Shown: positions 50,099-58,816 of the stretch, piece by piece
How positions within the stretch are numbered: the stretch's first letter is position 1
How the letters are laid out: each line of letters starts with the position of its first letter
Source of the DNA: a virus
Lineage: Duplodnaviria > Caudoviricetes
DNA: 64,000 bases
IMG/VR virus record: IMGVR_UViG_3300020399_000132
Location: 32,001 to 96,000 of that record
Reading direction: 5' to 3' (one strand)
The notes under the pieces: model-generated
The model's input: only the letters and a program-made list of their open reading frames with translations
Told to the model about the DNA's origin: nothing
Database searches by the model: none
Made by a program: the position numbers and the translations under genes

Positions 50099-51283
50099 TT
50101 AATATTTCGCTGATTCTTTTTCCACGTATCCGTCTTGCACGTGCATGCTGTTATCTTCTAATTCTTCAGTTGCATTAGGATCTACTTTAGTCCAGAGATC
50201 CATAAATCCCGTTTTGGTATCTTCATCGAAACGATTGATCGAAAATTCGATCGCCTTTTCTTTATTCTGGAATATCATATAAGAAGTAACAATGTTTATC
50301 AAACGACGAGTGGAAATTATTTCATCGATTCCTCCATCAGCAAAGGTCCGACGGATAACATCTGTCCATTGACAAAGATGATTAACAAAATCTGAATCTT
50401 CAACACCATGATTTTTAAGTATTCTAGAAACGATTTTCTTTTCAATAGAGGTGGGGGGATAATCTTGTTCGAATGTAATTGGAAAACGATCAAGAAAAGC
50501 TTCATTAAGAATGTTGGCTCCTATAAATCGTCCATCATCATTACCTTTACCTTTTGTATTAGCAGTTGCGACAATGTTAAATCCGGCTTCAGGCTTTACA
50601 AGACGATTAATCTTTTTCAAGAAAATGCTTCCACCTTCAAGTACTGGTTGGAGACACATAATTTTATTAGATGCAAGATCAATTTCATCAAGAAGAAGCA
50701 GTGCGCCTCTTTCCATCGCAACGATAACTGGTCCATCTTCCCAAATGGTCTCACCATCTTTTAAAATATAGTGACCAAGAAGATCATCTTCATCTGTTTC
50801 GATTGTAATATTGACACGAATTAATTCGCGTTTTGTACTAGCCGCTGCTTCAAAAACTTCCTTGGTTTTGCCCATTCCGGACAAGCCGGTAATAAAAGAA
50901 GGAACGAACATTCCAGATTTAAATATCTGAACTAGTTCTTTGTAATATCCTGCTTTAATATAATTGGGATCTTTTTCTGGAACGAAAGAGATGCTTTCAT
51001 CTACTTTCTTAATTGTGGTGTCATGTTGAACAACACGGACATCTTTAAGTGCTTTCGGTTTGCGATATTTATCTCCCCATTTAGCTACAGGAGCTGTCAT
51101 ATTCTTTCCATAATTTGCAATTGAAAACTGATTCCGACCTACTCGAATTTTTCCTAAAAAATTCTGATTAGGCTCTGGATTACCGCTTTCATCAGCAACT
51201 TCATTTACCTGTGAACGATCTAAAATCGCTTGCACACCGTGCTTAGTTTTCCAGGTTTCAACTAATTGTTCTTTATTCATCAT
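50099..51283 (-). CDS. cobS: CobS/MoxR-like AAA+ ATPase
   Basis: GLSGMGKT, ETDEDDLLG, LLDEID, ATANTKG, NEAFLDRF, ISTRRL. Confidence 0.85.
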   Translation of the reverse strand: MMNKEQLVETWKTKHGVQAILDRSQVNEVADESGNPEPNQNFLGKIRVGRNQFSIANYGKNMTAPVAKWGDKYRKPKALKDVRVVQHDTTIKKVDESISFVPEKDPNYIKAGYYKELVQIFKSGMFVPSFITGLSGMGKTKEVFEAAASTKRELIRVNITIETDEDDLLGHYILKDGETIWEDGPVIVAMERGALLLLDEIDLASNKIMCLQPVLEGGSIFLKKINRLVKPEAGFNIVATANTKGKGNDDGRFIGANILNEAFLDRFPITFEQDYPPTSIEKKIVSRILKNHGVEDSDFVNHLCQWTDVIRRTFADGGIDEIISTRRLINIVTSYMIFQNKEKAIEFSINRFDEDTKTGFMDLWTKVDPNATEELEDNSMHVQDGYVEKESAKY

Positions 51284-51479: not shown

Positions 51480-53984
51480 TTAAGCAACCATTTCCGCAAA
51501 TCTTTGAAGCATTATCCTTTTTTCTAATTTTCCTTTTTGAAATTTTTTGAATGCCTTGGTCAAAGAAGCGGTTGAATTAACTTTATTAGTATCAATATTT
51601 ATTTCATCCTCCATCATAACGGAGGCATATTGTTTGATTACATAAAGTTCATCATATCCACGATTTTCTACAATCATGTAACCGTTTCGATTGTAATCCG
51701 TTTTTACATCTTGCCATTCGCTCCATCCAACCATGCGAGTTGCATCATCAGAGGAAGTTGTAAGAAAAAATCCTAAAACATTTGAACCGGTCTTATATTT
51801 AAAATAATTTATAAAATTTTCTGTTTGGCGAAATCCATGACAGGCGGTCCAATCAAAAACTTTTTTTGTTTCTTTATCAACCAACCTGATGTGAGAATTT
51901 CGAGTATCGATTCGTTCTGGAAAAAGTTCATCTCCGCTGTCTTCTCTTGTCACGAAAGTTTTATGAGATGAATTAGATTCTCCGTCTGTAAGAATAATTG
52001 TGTTAACAATATCAAGATTATTTTCTCTTTGAAATCTTTTAACATTTTCTGAACTTATCATGATTGCATCATTCAAAGGAGTTCCGCAAAGACGATGTAG
52101 CGGAAACTTTATATGTCGACCTATTGAATTCCATTCCCAAGATGATTGACATTTATTTTCATAACCCCAAGTATCATAGATTATAGAAGGGATTGTATCT
52201 TTCGGAAGTTTGGTATTTCGACCAGTCCATGCATTTCTATTTCTTATTTTATCTCTTCTTTCTTCTAACCAATACGCACCAACAAAATCTCTATCGCATC
52301 GAAGTATAGATAAAAGAAGATTTTCACGTTGTGACTTAAATTCCTTACTGGTCATTTTATTAGAAAATATTTCAATTAATTGAGTAGATTTATCTCCCAT
52401 TGCCATATCGCCTAATCGTTCTTTATAAGGAGTCCCAAATTTTTCTTTTTCTTTTCCTTCTTCATCAAAACTATAATCAACAAAAGCATATGCCTCATGA
52501 GCGATGTTACATTTTCGACAAAAATCTATTAATTGAAATAATTGATTCAAAGTTGGAAGCATTTTATCACTCATAGATCCTGACCAATCCATTAAAAAAT
52601 AAAGTCCGTGACTCTTACCTTCAGGAACAATCGTAATTTTCTTAAAAATATTATCACAATATTTGTACTTATGAATGTCTGAAAGAGATATGGTACCTGT
52701 GTTTGCGGTCATCGATCTTTTATATTCAGCTGCTTTCTTTTTCATTTCAAATTCTTTAACAAGATAATTAACAACTGGTTTATTTTCTTTGTCGATATAT
52801 TTCAAATATTCGCGTGCATATCCAAATGCTAATGAATATTCTCTTTCCCACTCACTCTCTCCCTTATTTGCCCCTATCAAATAATCCCTGCGTTCATCTA
52901 TTGCTTCCTGAGTTCTTTTTAAAAGTTCTTTATAATTAATAATTAAATTTTCACTTTTCAAATCAATTGTTGGTGAATTATAATATTGCAAATCTAGCGC
53001 ATCTTCATGAACTAGTTCTTCCTCATGTTCACGAAAATTCTGATCAGTTAAGGATTTCGGTTCTTGTTTCCATCTCCATGGATCATCTTCATACCACTTA
53101 TCATATCCTCCTGTTTTTCCGGAACCCAACTGTCCATCTTCTTCCTCTTTTCCTCCATCTTCTTCAGACGCAGATGATTCTTGATTTCCATCACCTTCTT
53201 CTTCTTGATCTCCATCAGTTCCTTCATTATCGCATTTATCTACCGGCTTATCACAATCATCTTTTTCTGTTTCCTCTGCTGCCGATGATTGTTCTTCTGT
53301 TTCATTAAAATCATAATCATAATCATTTTCCTCATCACTATCTTCATCTTCATCTTCATCTTCTTGATAATATTGATCCATAAAAGAATCATCCTGACAA
53401 GTCTGTTGTTCTTGTTCGTTTTCTTCAGCATAATTCCAAAGTTCCTTAGTCAGTTGTTCAACATCTTCCCAAGTCTCAAGTGCGGCCATCTTATCAACAA
53501 ATGGTTTCTCTGCTTCGGTGAATTGAACATTCTCCAAAGGACCACCTTTAAAATGAATATTGAGTTTATCAATTAGTGAGGCAGAATTGATATCTATATT
53601 ATATTGCTTGAGGCCGAAAAAATCTCTATCATGTACTAAGACTTTATATCCCTTGCTCATCGCTTTTCCAGCACCTGCGAACTTTCTTTTGATTAATTTT
53701 TCGATCCTGGCATCTTCTACAACGTTCAAAAAGCCCTTATAATTCGGTCCTTTTTCTTCAATAACCTTGTGCCAGCCATTAGCTGGAGTATTTAAAGCGT
53801 GTCCGACTTCGTGACAAACAAACAAGTCATAAACCTCACCTTCCATCTCTTTGAGAATCGGTAAAATTAATGTTCTGCCTTTCGGATCGAATCCGGCGGT
53901 TGGAACTTTAGCGTGGCGCACAGTAATATTTTCTGACGCCATGAGTTTTGCTAAAATTCCTTTTTGTTCTATTAATTCAGCCAT
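51480..53984 (-). CDS. CobT-like protein: N-terminal HExxH domain, acidic linker and vWA domain
   Basis: HEVGHAL, NVVEDARIE, poly-Asp/Glu linker, MIDAS DWSGSM, GTPL, LTDGES. Confidence 0.8.
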   Translation of the reverse strand: MAELIEQKGILAKLMASENITVRHAKVPTAGFDPKGRTLILPILKEMEGEVYDLFVCHEVGHALNTPANGWHKVIEEKGPNYKGFLNVVEDARIEKLIKRKFAGAGKAMSKGYKVLVHDRDFFGLKQYNIDINSASLIDKLNIHFKGGPLENVQFTEAEKPFVDKMAALETWEDVEQLTKELWNYAEENEQEQQTCQDDSFMDQYYQEDEDEDEDSDEENDYDYDFNETEEQSSAAEETEKDDCDKPVDKCDNEGTDGDQEEEGDGNQESSASEEDGGKEEEDGQLGSGKTGGYDKWYEDDPWRWKQEPKSLTDQNFREHEEELVHEDALDLQYYNSPTIDLKSENLIINYKELLKRTQEAIDERRDYLIGANKGESEWEREYSLAFGYAREYLKYIDKENKPVVNYLVKEFEMKKKAAEYKRSMTANTGTISLSDIHKYKYCDNIFKKITIVPEGKSHGLYFLMDWSGSMSDKMLPTLNQLFQLIDFCRKCNIAHEAYAFVDYSFDEEGKEKEKFGTPYKERLGDMAMGDKSTQLIEIFSNKMTSKEFKSQRENLLLSILRCDRDFVGAYWLEERRDKIRNRNAWTGRNTKLPKDTIPSIIYDTWGYENKCQSSWEWNSIGRHIKFPLHRLCGTPLNDAIMISSENVKRFQRENNLDIVNTIILTDGESNSSHKTFVTREDSGDELFPERIDTRNSHIRLVDKETKKVFDWTACHGFRQTENFINYFKYKTGSNVLGFFLTTSSDDATRMVGWSEWQDVKTDYNRNGYMIVENRGYDELYVIKQYASVMMEDEINIDTNKVNSTASLTKAFKKFQKGKLEKRIMLQRFAEMVA

Positions 53985-53991
53985 GTTCCTC

Positions 53992-54237
53992 TTATACGAT
54001 GTTAAATCTAGGATCTTCAGTTATATGATCTCCCTCTGCAAGGCATGATTTGACCTGATACTTATCTCTAAAGATTTCCATCTTGTTAAAAGCATCGTCA
54101 AAGCTTTCTGCCGTCAGATATAAAGGTGATACATATTCCAAGGTATCCCAAGTACGCATCCATACCTGATACGTCTGATTTTTAGTCATGTGCCTTCTTC
54201 TTTGGTTGCTTTTATATTTTTGATCGTATATCGCCAT
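53992..54237 (-). CDS. Hypothetical early protein
   Basis: First ORF after the early promoter; GAGAGAG SD-like sequence shared with the cobS leader. Confidence 0.55.
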   Translation of the reverse strand: MAIYDQKYKSNQRRRHMTKNQTYQVWMRTWDTLEYVSPLYLTAESFDDAFNKMEIFRDKYQVKSCLAEGDHITEDPRFNIV

Positions 54238-54291: not shown

Positions 54292-54320
54292 ATTATACCA
54301 TTTATAGCGCAACATGTCAA
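54292..54320 (-). promoter_or_regulatory. Strong early sigma70-type promoter
   Basis: TTGACATGTTG...-17 nt-TATAATATATATAGAGAATAAAGAAAG. Confidence 0.85.
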
Positions 54321-54445
54321 CATATTTGATTTCTTGTAATATCAAGAGGTTACTAGTACCTTATTGAAATTATTGATAATCTTTTATCATCAATGATTGC
54401 GACCGGTTACCTATATCTCATTAAAATCATTGATAATCTTTTTTG

Positions 54446-54452
54446 ATAAATA
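54446..54452 (+). promoter_or_regulatory. T4-type late promoter for the synthetase-tRNA unit
   Basis: GATAAATA, the same variant as at 42082 (minus strand), about 50 nt before the start. Confidence 0.5.
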
Positions 54453-54500: not shown

Positions 54501-55334
54501 TTGACTAGCTTAATTATACCTACAGATTTTGACAATGCCGTTACCAGTCTTCGTAAATTTTTTCATTCCCGTGGTTTCCTAGAAGTACACACCCAAAACA
54601 GATTATCCATATTAGCCGCTTGCGAAGATCCCACAACTGTCGCAACATATAATTATAATGACATCATATGGCCTTTGCCTCAAACAGGTCAAATGTGGTT
54701 AGAATACGAGCTATTAAATAATCCAGATTTAAAAGGAGTATTCTGTGTTTCAACATCTTATAGACAAGAACAGAACCCCGTTGAAGGTAGACATGAAGTT
54801 ATATTTCCCATGTTTGAATTTGAAGCACCTGGCGACTTTCAGGACTTGCTTAATATGGAAAGAGATTTAATTAAGCACTTAGGTTTCATAATTCCTGATA
54901 ACAATTCATTTCCTGAAAAAACCTACGGTATGTGGTGCGAGGATTTTGATTGTGATGAATTAGATCATGACCACGAACAAATGATATCTGATTCCCATCC
55001 ATCCGGAGTTGGATTTATAACTCAATTTCCTTATCATACTTCCCCCTTTTGGAATATGAAAAAAGAAGGTGATCTTGCTAACAAATGCGATGTAATTATG
55101 GGGGGCATGGAAACTATTGGTTCCGCTGAAAGGTCTGCTGATCCGAAAGAGATGGAAGACCAGTTTCATACAATTTCCGATGGAGAATATGCTGAATTAT
55201 TATTTAAATTATTCGGTAAAGAACGAGTAGAAAAAGAATTGAAAGAATTCTTAAGTCATAAATTTTTTCCAAGATATGGTGGTGGAATAGGTCTTACCAG
55301 ACTTATAAGTGCCCTGAAGATTAATAATGCGTGA
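54501..55334 (+). CDS. AsnRS-like class II aminoacyl-tRNA synthetase catalytic core lacking the anticodon-binding domain
   Basis: Motif 1 LRKFFHSRGFLEVHT, LPQTGQ, motif 2 SYRQE...GRH...FPMFEFE, ETIGSAER, motif 3 GGGIGLTRL; TTG start at 54501 after AAGGA (the ORF track extends it to 54459). Confidence 0.85.
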   Translation: MTSLIIPTDFDNAVTSLRKFFHSRGFLEVHTQNRLSILAACEDPTTVATYNYNDIIWPLPQTGQMWLEYELLNNPDLKGVFCVSTSYRQEQNPVEGRHEVIFPMFEFEAPGDFQDLLNMERDLIKHLGFIIPDNNSFPEKTYGMWCEDFDCDELDHDHEQMISDSHPSGVGFITQFPYHTSPFWNMKKEGDLANKCDVIMGGMETIGSAERSADPKEMEDQFHTISDGEYAELLFKLFGKERVEKELKEFLSHKFFPRYGGGIGLTRLISALKINNA

Positions 55335-55337
55335 TAC

Positions 55338-55448
55338 TCTGGGGTGGCGAAATAGGGAAACGCGGCACGTTGTTTGCGTGTTATCTTTGGTTTGATCGAT
55401 ATAATCTAGATCAAAGATGTGTTGGTTCGAGTCCAACCCCCAGAGCCA
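55338..55448 (+). tRNA. Atypical tRNA-Asn(GUU), 111 nt, with a 39-nt variable arm and encoded CCA
   Basis: Acceptor TCTGGGG/CCCCAGA, G73, CCA; D arm GCG/CGC; anticodon arm GCACG-TTGTTTG-CGTGT; T arm GTTGG-TTCGAGT-CCAAC. Confidence 0.85.
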
Positions 55449-55473: not shown

Positions 55474-55968
55474 TTAAAACTTAGATATAAATTTCGCTAT
55501 GGGTTGAATAAGTGGAAGTAAAGCAACCGCCATTAGTGCATTCACTCCTGTATGAATTATTGCAATCTGTTTAGTTATTCCTGTGGGCATCCCATCAGAA
55601 ACCATTATTCCAGCCAACCAAATAGTTCCAGTAGTTCCTATATTTGCACCAAGTACAGCTGCGATTGCAGATGGTAAAGGTAAGGCGCCAGATGCAACTA
55701 ATCCTATAATTGCGGTAGTAGAAAGTGAACTAGATTGCCAGAGAAGAGTACATCCAATTGCTCCGAAAAACATATAATAGGGATTTCCTAAAAACCATTC
55801 AAGATGTTCTAAATGACTCATTGATTTCATTCCTCCCGAAAACATCTTAAGACCAATGTAAAAAATTACCAAACCTAAAAGGGTCTGAAATACTGGGTTA
55901 TTAAATTCCATAAAATTTCCTTTTTTATATTTCCACGAATCGTAGAGTTTTCTATCTTTCTTTTTCAT
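55474..55968 (-). CDS. Na+/Pi cotransporter-family membrane protein (single repeat)
   Basis: GLKMFSGGM, QSSSLST, GANIGTT, IIHTGVN; alternative start MEFNN at 55911. Confidence 0.8.
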   Translation of the reverse strand: MKKKDRKLYDSWKYKKGNFMEFNNPVFQTLLGLVIFYIGLKMFSGGMKSMSHLEHLEWFLGNPYYMFFGAIGCTLLWQSSSLSTTAIIGLVASGALPLPSAIAAVLGANIGTTGTIWLAGIMVSDGMPTGITKQIAIIHTGVNALMAVALLPLIQPIAKFISKF

Positions 55969-57326: not shown

Positions 57327-57408
57327 ATATAAATGGATCTAAATCTTCTTTTTCTTTAACAAATTTATATTTAATTCTCAAATAGTGTTTAAGAATATAC
57401 GTTGACAC
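57319..57408 (-). CDS. 29-aa peptide ending DPFIYD, next to the carbamoyltransferase (not in the ORF track)
   Basis: GTG start; MSTYILKHYLRIKYKFVKEKEDLDPFIYD; fills the gap. Confidence 0.45.
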   Translation of the reverse strand: MSTYILKHYLRIKYKFVKEKEDLDPFIYD

Positions 57409-58816
57409 CCGTTTTCTTAGTGAAGGCTTTGGCATCTTCTTTAGTGTTGACAATTGGTTCTCCTTTAATATTTAAAGACGTATTTAATAACACTGGACAT
57501 TTTGTAATATCTTTCCAAATTTGTAATAACGTTTTATGAGGTTCATGCTTAACTACTTGTAATCTGGAAGTCCCATCTAAATGAACAACTCCTGGATACT
57601 TAATTTTAAATTCTTCTGTTGCTTGAAGAGCACAACTCATATACGGCGAAAAAAATCCTCCATTAAAATATTTTGAAACATCTTCTTCTAATATCATTGG
57701 TGCAAAAGGTCTAAAAGGTTCTCTACCTTTTATTTCATTAATTTTATCTTTAATTTTAGGATCTCTTGGATCCCCAAATAAAGTTCTATTACCTAAAGCT
57801 CTCGGCCCAAATTCACATCTACCATTAGCAACTCCAACCACTCTTTTAACCATTAATTCATCTATTATTTCTTGGAACGGAAACGGTCCTTGAATATCAT
57901 AACCAAGATAAGGAGAAGGATCAATGTGGTTTCTTGTTCTTGCAAGAATGCATCCCACAGCAGAACCAGAGTCACCTGGATTAGATGGAATATGGATACG
58001 AGAAAAATAATCTGATAAAAATCTATTGGCACTAACATTTAAAGCACATCCTCCCACAAAAACTATATTACCTGTTTCATTTAATTTATGAATACTAACT
58101 CTTTTTATTATGTCTCTAAAAATGTCTTCATATACCGCTTGAGCAGCAGTAGGAACATCTTCGGGATAAACTTCTGGTCTTTTTGTCCATTCTTTTATTT
58201 TAAGTAAACCTTTATGCCAGGACGTTCCATTATTCCAGAGTTCAAATATTCTTTTATAAACTGGTTCATATGGATATGTCTGTCGGGCTGCAGCTCCCAT
58301 CATAATATATTCTTCTTCATTAGGTTTCCATCCAGCATATTGAGTTAATGCTGAATACATTAAACCTAAAGATTTAGGATATTTCCAATTCCATAACTTC
58401 TTTAACTTTTTACCTTTGGCTTTCCATACAGTTAATGTCTCCCACTCTCCAATCGCATCAATAACCAAAACCATAGTATTATCAAAAGGAGAAGTATAAT
58501 ATCCATATGCTGCATGTGATAAATGATGTGAAGTATATTTCAGTTTATGATTATAAGGAAACTCGGGTGGTTTATAAAATGGTTTTTGTCCGGCATACCA
58601 ACGTCGCGACATTTTTACAAATGGATTTTCATAAAAATAAACTTTGGCTGGTTGCCCGTATTCTTCTAAAACATAATTGAAAAGATTTTCAGGGATTGCC
58701 GGATCGTTCTTTTTTCTAGAAAATCTTTCTGCATCGGTTGCAAATAATAGTTCGCTATTTTCAAATACTGCTATAGCGCCATCATGTGAGCCACAAGTTA
58801 ATCCCCAATAGATCAT
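57389..58816 (-). CDS. NodU/CmcH-family carbamoyltransferase
   Basis: SHDGA, ERFSRKKND, HHLSHAA, DAIGE, GGCALN, EFGPRALGNR, RPFAP, LNTSLN. Confidence 0.93.
   Translation of the reverse strand: MIYWGLTCGSHDGAIAVFENSELLFATDAERFSRKKNDPAIPENLFNYVLEEYGQPAKVYFYENPFVKMSRRWYAGQKPFYKPPEFPYNHKLKYTSHHLSHAAYGYYTSPFDNTMVLVIDAIGEWETLTVWKAKGKKLKKLWNWKYPKSLGLMYSALTQYAGWKPNEEEYIMMGAAARQTYPYEPVYKRIFELWNNGTSWHKGLLKIKEWTKRPEVYPEDVPTAAQAVYEDIFRDIIKRVSIHKLNETGNIVFVGGCALNVSANRFLSDYFSRIHIPSNPGDSGSAVGCILARTRNHIDPSPYLGYDIQGPFPFQEIIDELMVKRVVGVANGRCEFGPRALGNRTLFGDPRDPKIKDKINEIKGREPFRPFAPMILEEDVSKYFNGGFFSPYMSCALQATEEFKIKYPGVVHLDGTSRLQVVKHEPHKTLLQIWKDITKCPVLLNTSLNIKGEPIVNTKEDAKAFTKKTGVNVYS

Follow-up and report, generated by a model that had tools for sequence, protein, structure and literature searches.

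The DNA analysed here, a 64,000-nt stretch of a virus genome (the window), holds a genuine, structurally constrained tRNA gene that is linked to the gene of a small synthetase-like enzyme, which we call X. The tRNA gene is a functional member of a phage-specific family with Asn marks on a class-II-like body. Specific to the window are the longest extra arm in the family and the escape of the gene from the standard finders. We suggest, at a probability of roughly 45%, that this tRNA(GUU) is a non-ribosomal helper, or cofactor, of X, carrying Asx and loaded by the host or by X. The initial annotation of the locus had set three readings side by side, namely a decoder reshaped to evade anticodon nucleases, a decoy for them, and a non-ribosomal aminoacyl carrier. 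We favor the carrier, whereas no supporting evidence was found for nuclease evasion or a decoy. Our literature searches found no published study of the X-tRNA pair.

The window, with 32% G+C, comes from a virus record that is complete at 177 kb. Its gene content, including CobS-like and carbamoyltransferase genes, is typical of T4-like marine myoviruses, and psbA was not found in the phage. The features of the locus are collected in Table 1. The Asn-type identity elements (U1:A72, G73 and GUU), the loop UUGUUUG with U37 and G38, the 3-bp D stem and the 39-nt variable region can all be read in the sequence as the initial annotation had claimed. Its extra hairpin of ~13 bp does fold as a long hairpin, but the pairs are interrupted, with 12 bp, a 1-nt bulge and 3 further bp. 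The minimum free energy (MFE) structure given by RNAfold for the gene is the cloverleaf (-38.3 kcal/mol, z = -3.0; 1 of 200 shuffles is equally good). The gene has the GUU, G73 and U1:A72 of a canonical type I tRNA-Asn, with a variable loop of 39 nt where 4-5 nt are usual and U37 at the A37/t6A site. It also has the long variable stem-loop of a class II tRNA, with GUU in place of a Leu, Ser, Tyr or Sec anticodon.

Table 1. Positions in the window of the X-tRNA locus and its parts
Feature	Position	Strand	Details
X gene, AsnRS-like class IIb synthetase catalytic core	54501..55334	+	277 aa; PF00152 67 bits
ATAAATA, T4-type late-promoter-like motif (tentative)	54446..54452	+	upstream of the pair; weak evidence, read from the sequence
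tRNA(GUU) gene with encoded CCA	55338..55448	+	111 nt; RF00005 41.5 bits; family model R1 83 bits; cloverleaf MFE
Acceptor stem, 7 bp	55338-55344 with 55438-55444	+	U1:A72
Discriminator G73; CCA	55445; 55446-55448	+	read in the sequence
D arm	55347-55363	+	3-bp stem plus A13/A22 mismatch; loop of 11 nt
Anticodon arm	55365-55381	+	5-bp stem, 55365-55369 with 55377-55381
Anticodon G34-U35-U36; U37; G38	55372-55374; 55375; 55376	+	loop UUGUUUG (7 nt)
Variable region	55382..55420	+	39 nt: unpaired U, hairpin of 12 + 3 bp, unpaired GU
T arm, standard	55421-55437	+	

The comparison of tRNA finders that the initial annotation had proposed gives a divided result. ARAGORN called no tRNA anywhere in the 64,000-nt window, and a search of the window with Rfam at default filters and gathering thresholds did not detect the tRNA gene. 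With permissive filters, RF00005, whose gathering score is 29 bits, gives an end-to-end match of 41.5 bits (E = 1.3e-7, model positions 1-71), in which the extra arm is placed as a 36-nt insertion. The misses of ARAGORN and of filtered Rfam are detection failures, and the tRNA gene is present. It belongs to the X-linked tRNA(GUU) family, lying on the same strand as X and directly 3' of it, and the family-specific covariance model R1 gives it 83 bits. The highest R1 score for any tRNA of five X-bearing cellular genomes is 61.7 bits.

We delineated this family in a set of 83 loci, made up of the best 80 viral loci, the phages P-SSM2 and P-SSM7, and the window locus, 80 of which are informative downstream of X. 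A family tRNA lies directly behind X in 75 of the 80 informative viral loci (73 parsed copies and 2 cut copies found with the model), and X has no family tRNA in 5. The gap between the stop codon of X and the tRNA is 3 nt in the window; in the family its median is 9 nt and it reaches 226 nt. The linkage holds down to 59% X identity, and the flanking genes differ. In the Prochlorococcus phages P-SSM2 and P-SSM7, a gene named "tRNA ligase" is followed by a tRNA-Asn with U1:A72, G73 and the loop CUGUUUA, labelled in GenBank as tRNA-Asn only.

The stems of the family are under strong constraint. Over 36 diverse members, 99.9% of the stem cells are paired and 18 of the 20 pairs change on both sides; none of 500 shuffles reaches the observed level, and slid controls are 38-52% paired. 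The earlier view that the gene is not decaying is therefore upheld by compensated changes. Uncompensated mutations in homologues had been named as the sign of a pseudogene, and the covariation refutes that reading.

Across 68 unique family sequences, U1, A72, G73, U8, A14, G18-G19, A21, G34 and U35 are invariant, and the full set of tertiary nucleotides, which also includes T54-T55-C56 and A58, shows little or no variation (T55 in 65 of 68). U36 is found in 67 of 68, the single exception being the GUC copy of locus L059. This copy (L059:2898-2993) combines an Asp anticodon and G37 with an otherwise typical U1:A72 and G73 body, and its closest relatives have GUU with U37. Position 37 is U in 57 sequences (84%), G in 9 and A in 2. 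At position 33, 54 sequences have U, 8 have C and 6 have A, making 21% non-U. CCA is encoded in 44 of 59 unique copies. As 84% of unique copies retain U37, we regard it as selected and not as the result of drift. The arm and U37 had been taken as peculiar to this gene, but U37 and the class-II body are the family norm, and only the length of the arm is special.

We see the 39-nt hairpin as the end of the range of an arm that changes readily in evolution, and not as a separate device. Some family members have no extra arm, and in others it reaches up to 39 nt; the variable region is 13-39 nt in most relatives, and the longest arms (38-39 nt) belong to the window and a few closely related loci. 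Every variable region of at least 13 nt folds as a hairpin of 3-15 bp, in nearly all cases laid out as 1 free nt, the hairpin and 2 free nt. The hairpin sequences of different family members are mutually unrelated. Among five distinct long-arm sequences, the basal 7 bp are invariant, and the changes fall at 5'-strand positions 8-10 and in the loop. When X is placed on a maximum-likelihood tree, tRNAs with a short loop and tRNAs with a long arm alternate between closely related X proteins, with about seven switches. Locus L007, inside the strongly supported X clade of the window, has a tRNA whose variable loop is 5 nt long, whose position 37 is G and whose acceptor stem differs. This alternation suggests either that the arm is labile or that whole tRNA cassettes are swapped between phages.

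Other roles for the arm were considered. It is unlikely to be a recognition handle that replaces the missing anticodon domain of X, because it switches among close X relatives. An intron was rejected: there is no bulge-helix-bulge (two 3-nt bulges and a 4-bp helix), the helix is continuous with a single 1-nt bulge, and the lengths grade continuously from 13 to 39 nt in relatives. Excision of the arm in vivo to give a normal tRNA, which the initial annotation had considered, is unlikely for the same reasons. In addition, since the window comes from a T4-like phage, the domain of the host is bacterial, whereas intron-containing pre-tRNAs of this kind are archaeal or eukaryal. A repeated or mobile hairpin was also rejected, as the 39-mer is unique in the 177-kb genome.

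The partner enzyme resembles the catalytic core of asparaginyl-tRNA synthetase (AsnRS). Translation of X probably starts at TTG 54501, which stands behind AAGGA and where homologues begin; the list of open reading frames opens the frame at TTG 54459. Together with the tRNA, X forms a plus-strand island amid minus-strand genes. The top match of an X profile against the PDB is the AsnRS 2XTI (1.5e-11), and Foldseek with an AlphaFold model of X (pLDDT 84) ranks the AsnRS 1X54 first (1.6e-18, TM 0.72). Identity to AsnRS catalytic domains (1X54, 2XTI and 8H53) is about 20%. X proteins (277-291 aa) align to the catalytic domain only, covering approximately residues 139-381 of 2XTI in the displayed alignment, and the N-terminal OB-fold anticodon-binding domain is absent from X in the profile alignment to AsnRS chains. 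The NCBIfam AsnRS models give X 28-32 bits against cut-offs of 343-414, and X falls far under every NCBIfam synthetase cut-off. Class II motifs 1-3 are intact, with R102, E104, R272 and R281 invariant in the family alignment, and phage X retains all the invariant residues of the X family. In the profile alignment, the pocket signature of X, QTGQMWLE plus SAER, resembles QSxQLYLE plus GGSxR of AsnRS, residues that we take to define Asn specificity. We found relatives of X on at least 596 viral stretches.

Some sequence elements lie upstream of the pair. The full TATAAATA motif shows no enrichment in the window. A 14-nt direct repeat, ATTGATAATCTTTT, occurs twice upstream of X (54372-54385 and 54429-54442, plus strand), the second copy abutting the ATAAATA motif. 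The repeat may serve as an operator or stem from duplication of a promoter element.

The X family is tied to pyrimidine genes. In Rickettsiales, X adjoins pyrF, a small phosphoribosyltransferase-like gene, pyrD and prs, and in a Rhodospirillaceae MAG it adjoins pyrF, a small phosphoribosyltransferase-like gene and pyrD. In Aureispira it is 1.4 kb from pyrD, and about a dozen viral loci have similar genes beside X. Natural fusions of dihydroorotate (DHO) dehydrogenase or OMP decarboxylase with X are 43-56% identical to the window X, and several of them are found on giant-virus-like contigs, adjoining a thymidine kinase or OMP-decarboxylase gene. Aspartate carbamoyltransferase scored above the cut-off in none of 12 X-bearing cellular genomes (some of 5.5-7.8 Mb), compared with 14 of 14 controls, while DHO dehydrogenase is present in 9 of the 12. 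Within one bacterial order, pyrB is absent in all 3 X-bearers and present in 53 of 58 non-bearers (Fisher test by hand, about 0.002). The pyrC models gave only sub-threshold matches in the large X-bearing genomes. Because of the fusions, the pyr neighbors and the complementarity to pyrB, X most likely serves in pyrimidine synthesis, as an enzyme of an early route that is so far undescribed. On this comparative evidence, it most likely acts at or before dihydroorotate and not as a housekeeping synthetase.

Cellular X is 55-63% identical to phage X and all motif residues are common to both, so that the two probably share one chemistry. In cells X stands alone as a protein of ~275-295 aa, in Patescibacteria, Rickettsiales, Dependentiae, Aureispira and others, under the source names "amino acid--tRNA ligase-related protein" or "transposase". 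The latter label, carried by the homologues of L110, L117 and L161 (P0145, P0150 and P0146), has no sequence support and looks like a propagated annotation error. The distribution is sporadic, with X in 2 of 151 Patescibacteria and in 3 of 61 genomes of the order holding Aureispira. We rejected the rule that X replaces a missing AsnRS: although 13 X-bearing genomes lack AsnRS, the X-bearing Bacteroidota have it, and X occurs in so few of the Patescibacteria. No family tRNA lies beside X in the X-bearing bacteria or giant-virus-like contigs examined. The contigs of L199-L204, which carry DHO-dehydrogenase+X fusion genes, also encode RING-finger, TBP-like, AAA and thymidine-kinase proteins and resemble giant viruses that infect eukaryotes; no family tRNA is present on them.

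The phage that carries the window has a second tRNA-Asn, of canonical form, at G000:C1:107775-107849, in which position 37 is A and the variable loop is 5 nt long, and AAU codons make up 51 per 1000 of its codons. No pyrD, pyrE or pyrF of its own was found in this genome, which has only a PRPP-synthase-like gene. That gene (G000:C1:106548-107312, minus strand) lies outside the window, ~460 nt from the canonical tRNA-Asn, and shares 36% identity with the prs found behind X in Bandiella.

Other genes around the pair are noted for completeness. Directly downstream of the tRNA, a 164-aa ORF (55474-55968, minus strand) matches only the first ~105 positions of PF02690, the Na+/Pi cotransporter family, and is fragment-sized and membrane-like. 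At 2 kb from the pair lies a NodU/CmcH-type carbamoyltransferase gene (57389-58816, minus strand; PF02543, PF16861 and a weak Sua5/YrdC match). A link of this enzyme to the carbamoyl-dependent pyrimidine step is only a thought, and in P-SSM2 and P-SSM7 the carbamoyltransferase does not neighbor the X-tRNA pair. On the other side, a perfect sigma-70 consensus (54292-54320, minus strand; TTGACA, 17 nt, TATAAT and a TG extension, 12 of 12 matches) resembles an early promoter and faces an 81-aa ORF (53992-54237, minus strand) without a Pfam match. An 834-aa protein (51480-53984, minus strand) with a long acidic low-complexity stretch has no Pfam match either; its gene adjoins that of a CobS-like AAA_5 ATPase (50099-51283, minus strand), and the protein probably represents the CobT-like partner that marine myoviruses often have.

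In the helper reading, we infer who charges the tRNA, with what, and how X uses it. The tRNA(GUU) would carry aspartate or asparagine for X, off the ribosome. The host could load it, by AsnRS or by a non-discriminating AspRS followed by GatCAB, or X itself might charge it, and the aminoacyl end would then be consumed in the active site of X. Since the ribosome would not be the main client, the purine at position 37, U33 and the short variable loop could be relaxed. The anticodon G34-U35-U36 and G73 are determinants for both AsnRS and AspRS. U1-A72 is the bacterial amidotransferase determinant (PMC1635274). Thus the invariant positions are those read by the proteins that handle tRNA-Asn, the ribosome-facing positions are relaxed, and a second, normal tRNA-Asn is present. 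These observations, together with the pyrimidine link of the X family, favor a non-ribosomal carrier. A more specific proposal is a two-part phage module, in which X would make dihydroorotate or a precursor of it from an Asp- or Asn-loaded, ribosome-averse tRNA(GUU), bypassing aspartate carbamoyltransferase. We put this forward tentatively, as a possibility that is rather doubtful in its full form.

Several observations weigh against the carrier. X works without a dedicated tRNA in bacteria, in giant-virus-like contigs and in 5 viral loci, so the tRNA is not intrinsic to the chemistry of X. The phage lacks pyrD, pyrE and pyrF and is rich in AAU codons. In addition, dihydroorotate retains a free alpha-carboxyl, and a tRNA ester is thus no obvious intermediate. 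The 7-nt anticodon loop, invariant GUU, intact T loop and encoded CCA also fit a decoding tRNA.

The main rival to the carrier is a private decoding pair. X would be a minimal, anticodon-blind AsnRS that charges the tRNA through U1:A72 and G73, and the tRNA would read AAU and AAC on the ribosome as the phage's own Asn channel. This would agree with the intact class II motifs, with AsnRS as the nearest relative by sequence and fold, and with the AsnRS-like pocket. The tight gene linkage, the invariant GUU, the CCA encoded in most unique copies and the AAU-rich genome would also suit such a pair. However, fusion and clustering with pyrimidine enzymes and complementarity to pyrB are unexpected for an AsnRS, and cells and giant viruses have X but not the tRNA. 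Furthermore, U37 and a non-U33 are poor for decoding, the phage already carries a normal tRNA-Asn, and the X-bearing Bacteroidota retain a normal AsnRS. We consider the private pair unlikely, though it deserves to be kept in view. A simpler form of decoding is an ordinary codon-usage tRNA-Asn that travels with X, its arm and U37 being tolerated and the host AsnRS charging it for translation. Phage tRNAs commonly match phage codon bias, AAU is frequent in this phage, and the P-SSM2 and P-SSM7 copies bear the plain GenBank label. Such a passenger is hard to reconcile with a linkage to X that persists to 59% X identity while the flanks change, with the selection seen at U37, and with the canonical tRNA-Asn elsewhere in the genome, all of which make it quite improbable.

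Still less credible is a cis-acting or regulatory tRNA-like element of the X transcript, serving as an RNase P/RNase Z 3'-end site, a stabiliser or a sensor of Asn charging. The short distance to the X stop codon (3 nt, with a family median of 9 nt), the common strand and the plus-strand island would suit it, but gaps reach 226 nt, and the tertiary nucleotides, G73 and CCA are conserved beyond the needs of a processing signal. We give the least credence to the nuclease readings, in which the tRNA would be either a decoder altered to evade anticodon nucleases of the host or a decoy for these enzymes. An arms race could account for the changes at positions 33 and 37 and for the fast turnover of the arm. 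It leaves the constant pairing with X unexplained, however; the anticodon G34-U35-U36, which such nucleases usually recognise, does not vary (U36 in 67 of 68), and no consistent neighborhood of defence or anti-defence genes was seen.

If the helper reading is true, a virus would here encode a tRNA that is maintained for a metabolic role instead of decoding, and the short list of tRNA-dependent metabolic pathways would gain one more case. The identity elements for synthetase and amidotransferase would be conserved while ribosome-facing features decay, and the synthetase-derived partner would seem to open an undescribed pyrimidine route. If the private pair is true, it would be a natural orthogonal mini-synthetase/tRNA pair, which would be of interest to genetic-code engineers. 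In either reading, standard finders miss long-arm copies, and phage tRNA censuses therefore undercount. The X-tRNA pair can be tested in culturable systems, with P-SSM2 or P-SSM7 on Prochlorococcus NATL1A or NATL2A.

The window tRNA can be compared with several known systems. With a canonical tRNA-Asn(GUU), such as the second one of this phage, it shares GUU, U1:A72, G73, the 7-nt anticodon loop, a standard T loop and the encoded CCA. It differs in its class-II-like body, its 3-bp D stem, a 39-nt hairpin instead of 5 nt, and U37 instead of A37, and also in that tRNAs of its family are paired with an X gene. The tRNA-Asn of P-SSM2 and P-SSM7 belongs to the same family and has the same place behind the enzyme, the same U1:A72, G73, GUU and U37, and an extra hairpin. 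However, its arm is of 5 bp in a 17-nt variable region and its CCA is unencoded, whereas the window copy has 12 + 3 bp and an encoded CCA. The class II tRNAs (bacterial Leu, Ser, Tyr and Sec) have in common with the window tRNA a long variable stem-loop and a 3-bp D stem. Their variable regions are roughly 10-24 nt. The window tRNA departs from them in the Asn identity of its anticodon and acceptor and in an arm about twice as long.

For the enzyme, the closest comparison is the AsnRS catalytic domain of P. horikoshii (1X54), B. malayi (2XTI) and human (8H53), with which X shares the class IIb fold and motifs. X differs from AsnRS in having no anticodon-binding domain, in its low identity of ~20%, in its fusion or clustering with pyrD and pyrF, and in its complementarity to pyrB. 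The proposed mode of action has its nearest likeness in systems that use tRNAs off the ribosome. For example, Glu-tRNA serves haem synthesis, and cyclodipeptide synthases, which are synthetase-like, use aminoacyl-tRNAs. tRNA-Asn and tRNA-Gln act as cofactors of tRNA-dependent amidation, also off the ribosome (PMC1635274). The mode suggested for X would be alike, an aminoacyl-tRNA supplying a metabolic enzyme, and the window tRNA has the amidotransferase determinant U1-A72. Those systems, however, borrow normal decoding tRNAs, whereas here a dedicated and divergent tRNA gene is attached to the gene of the enzyme.
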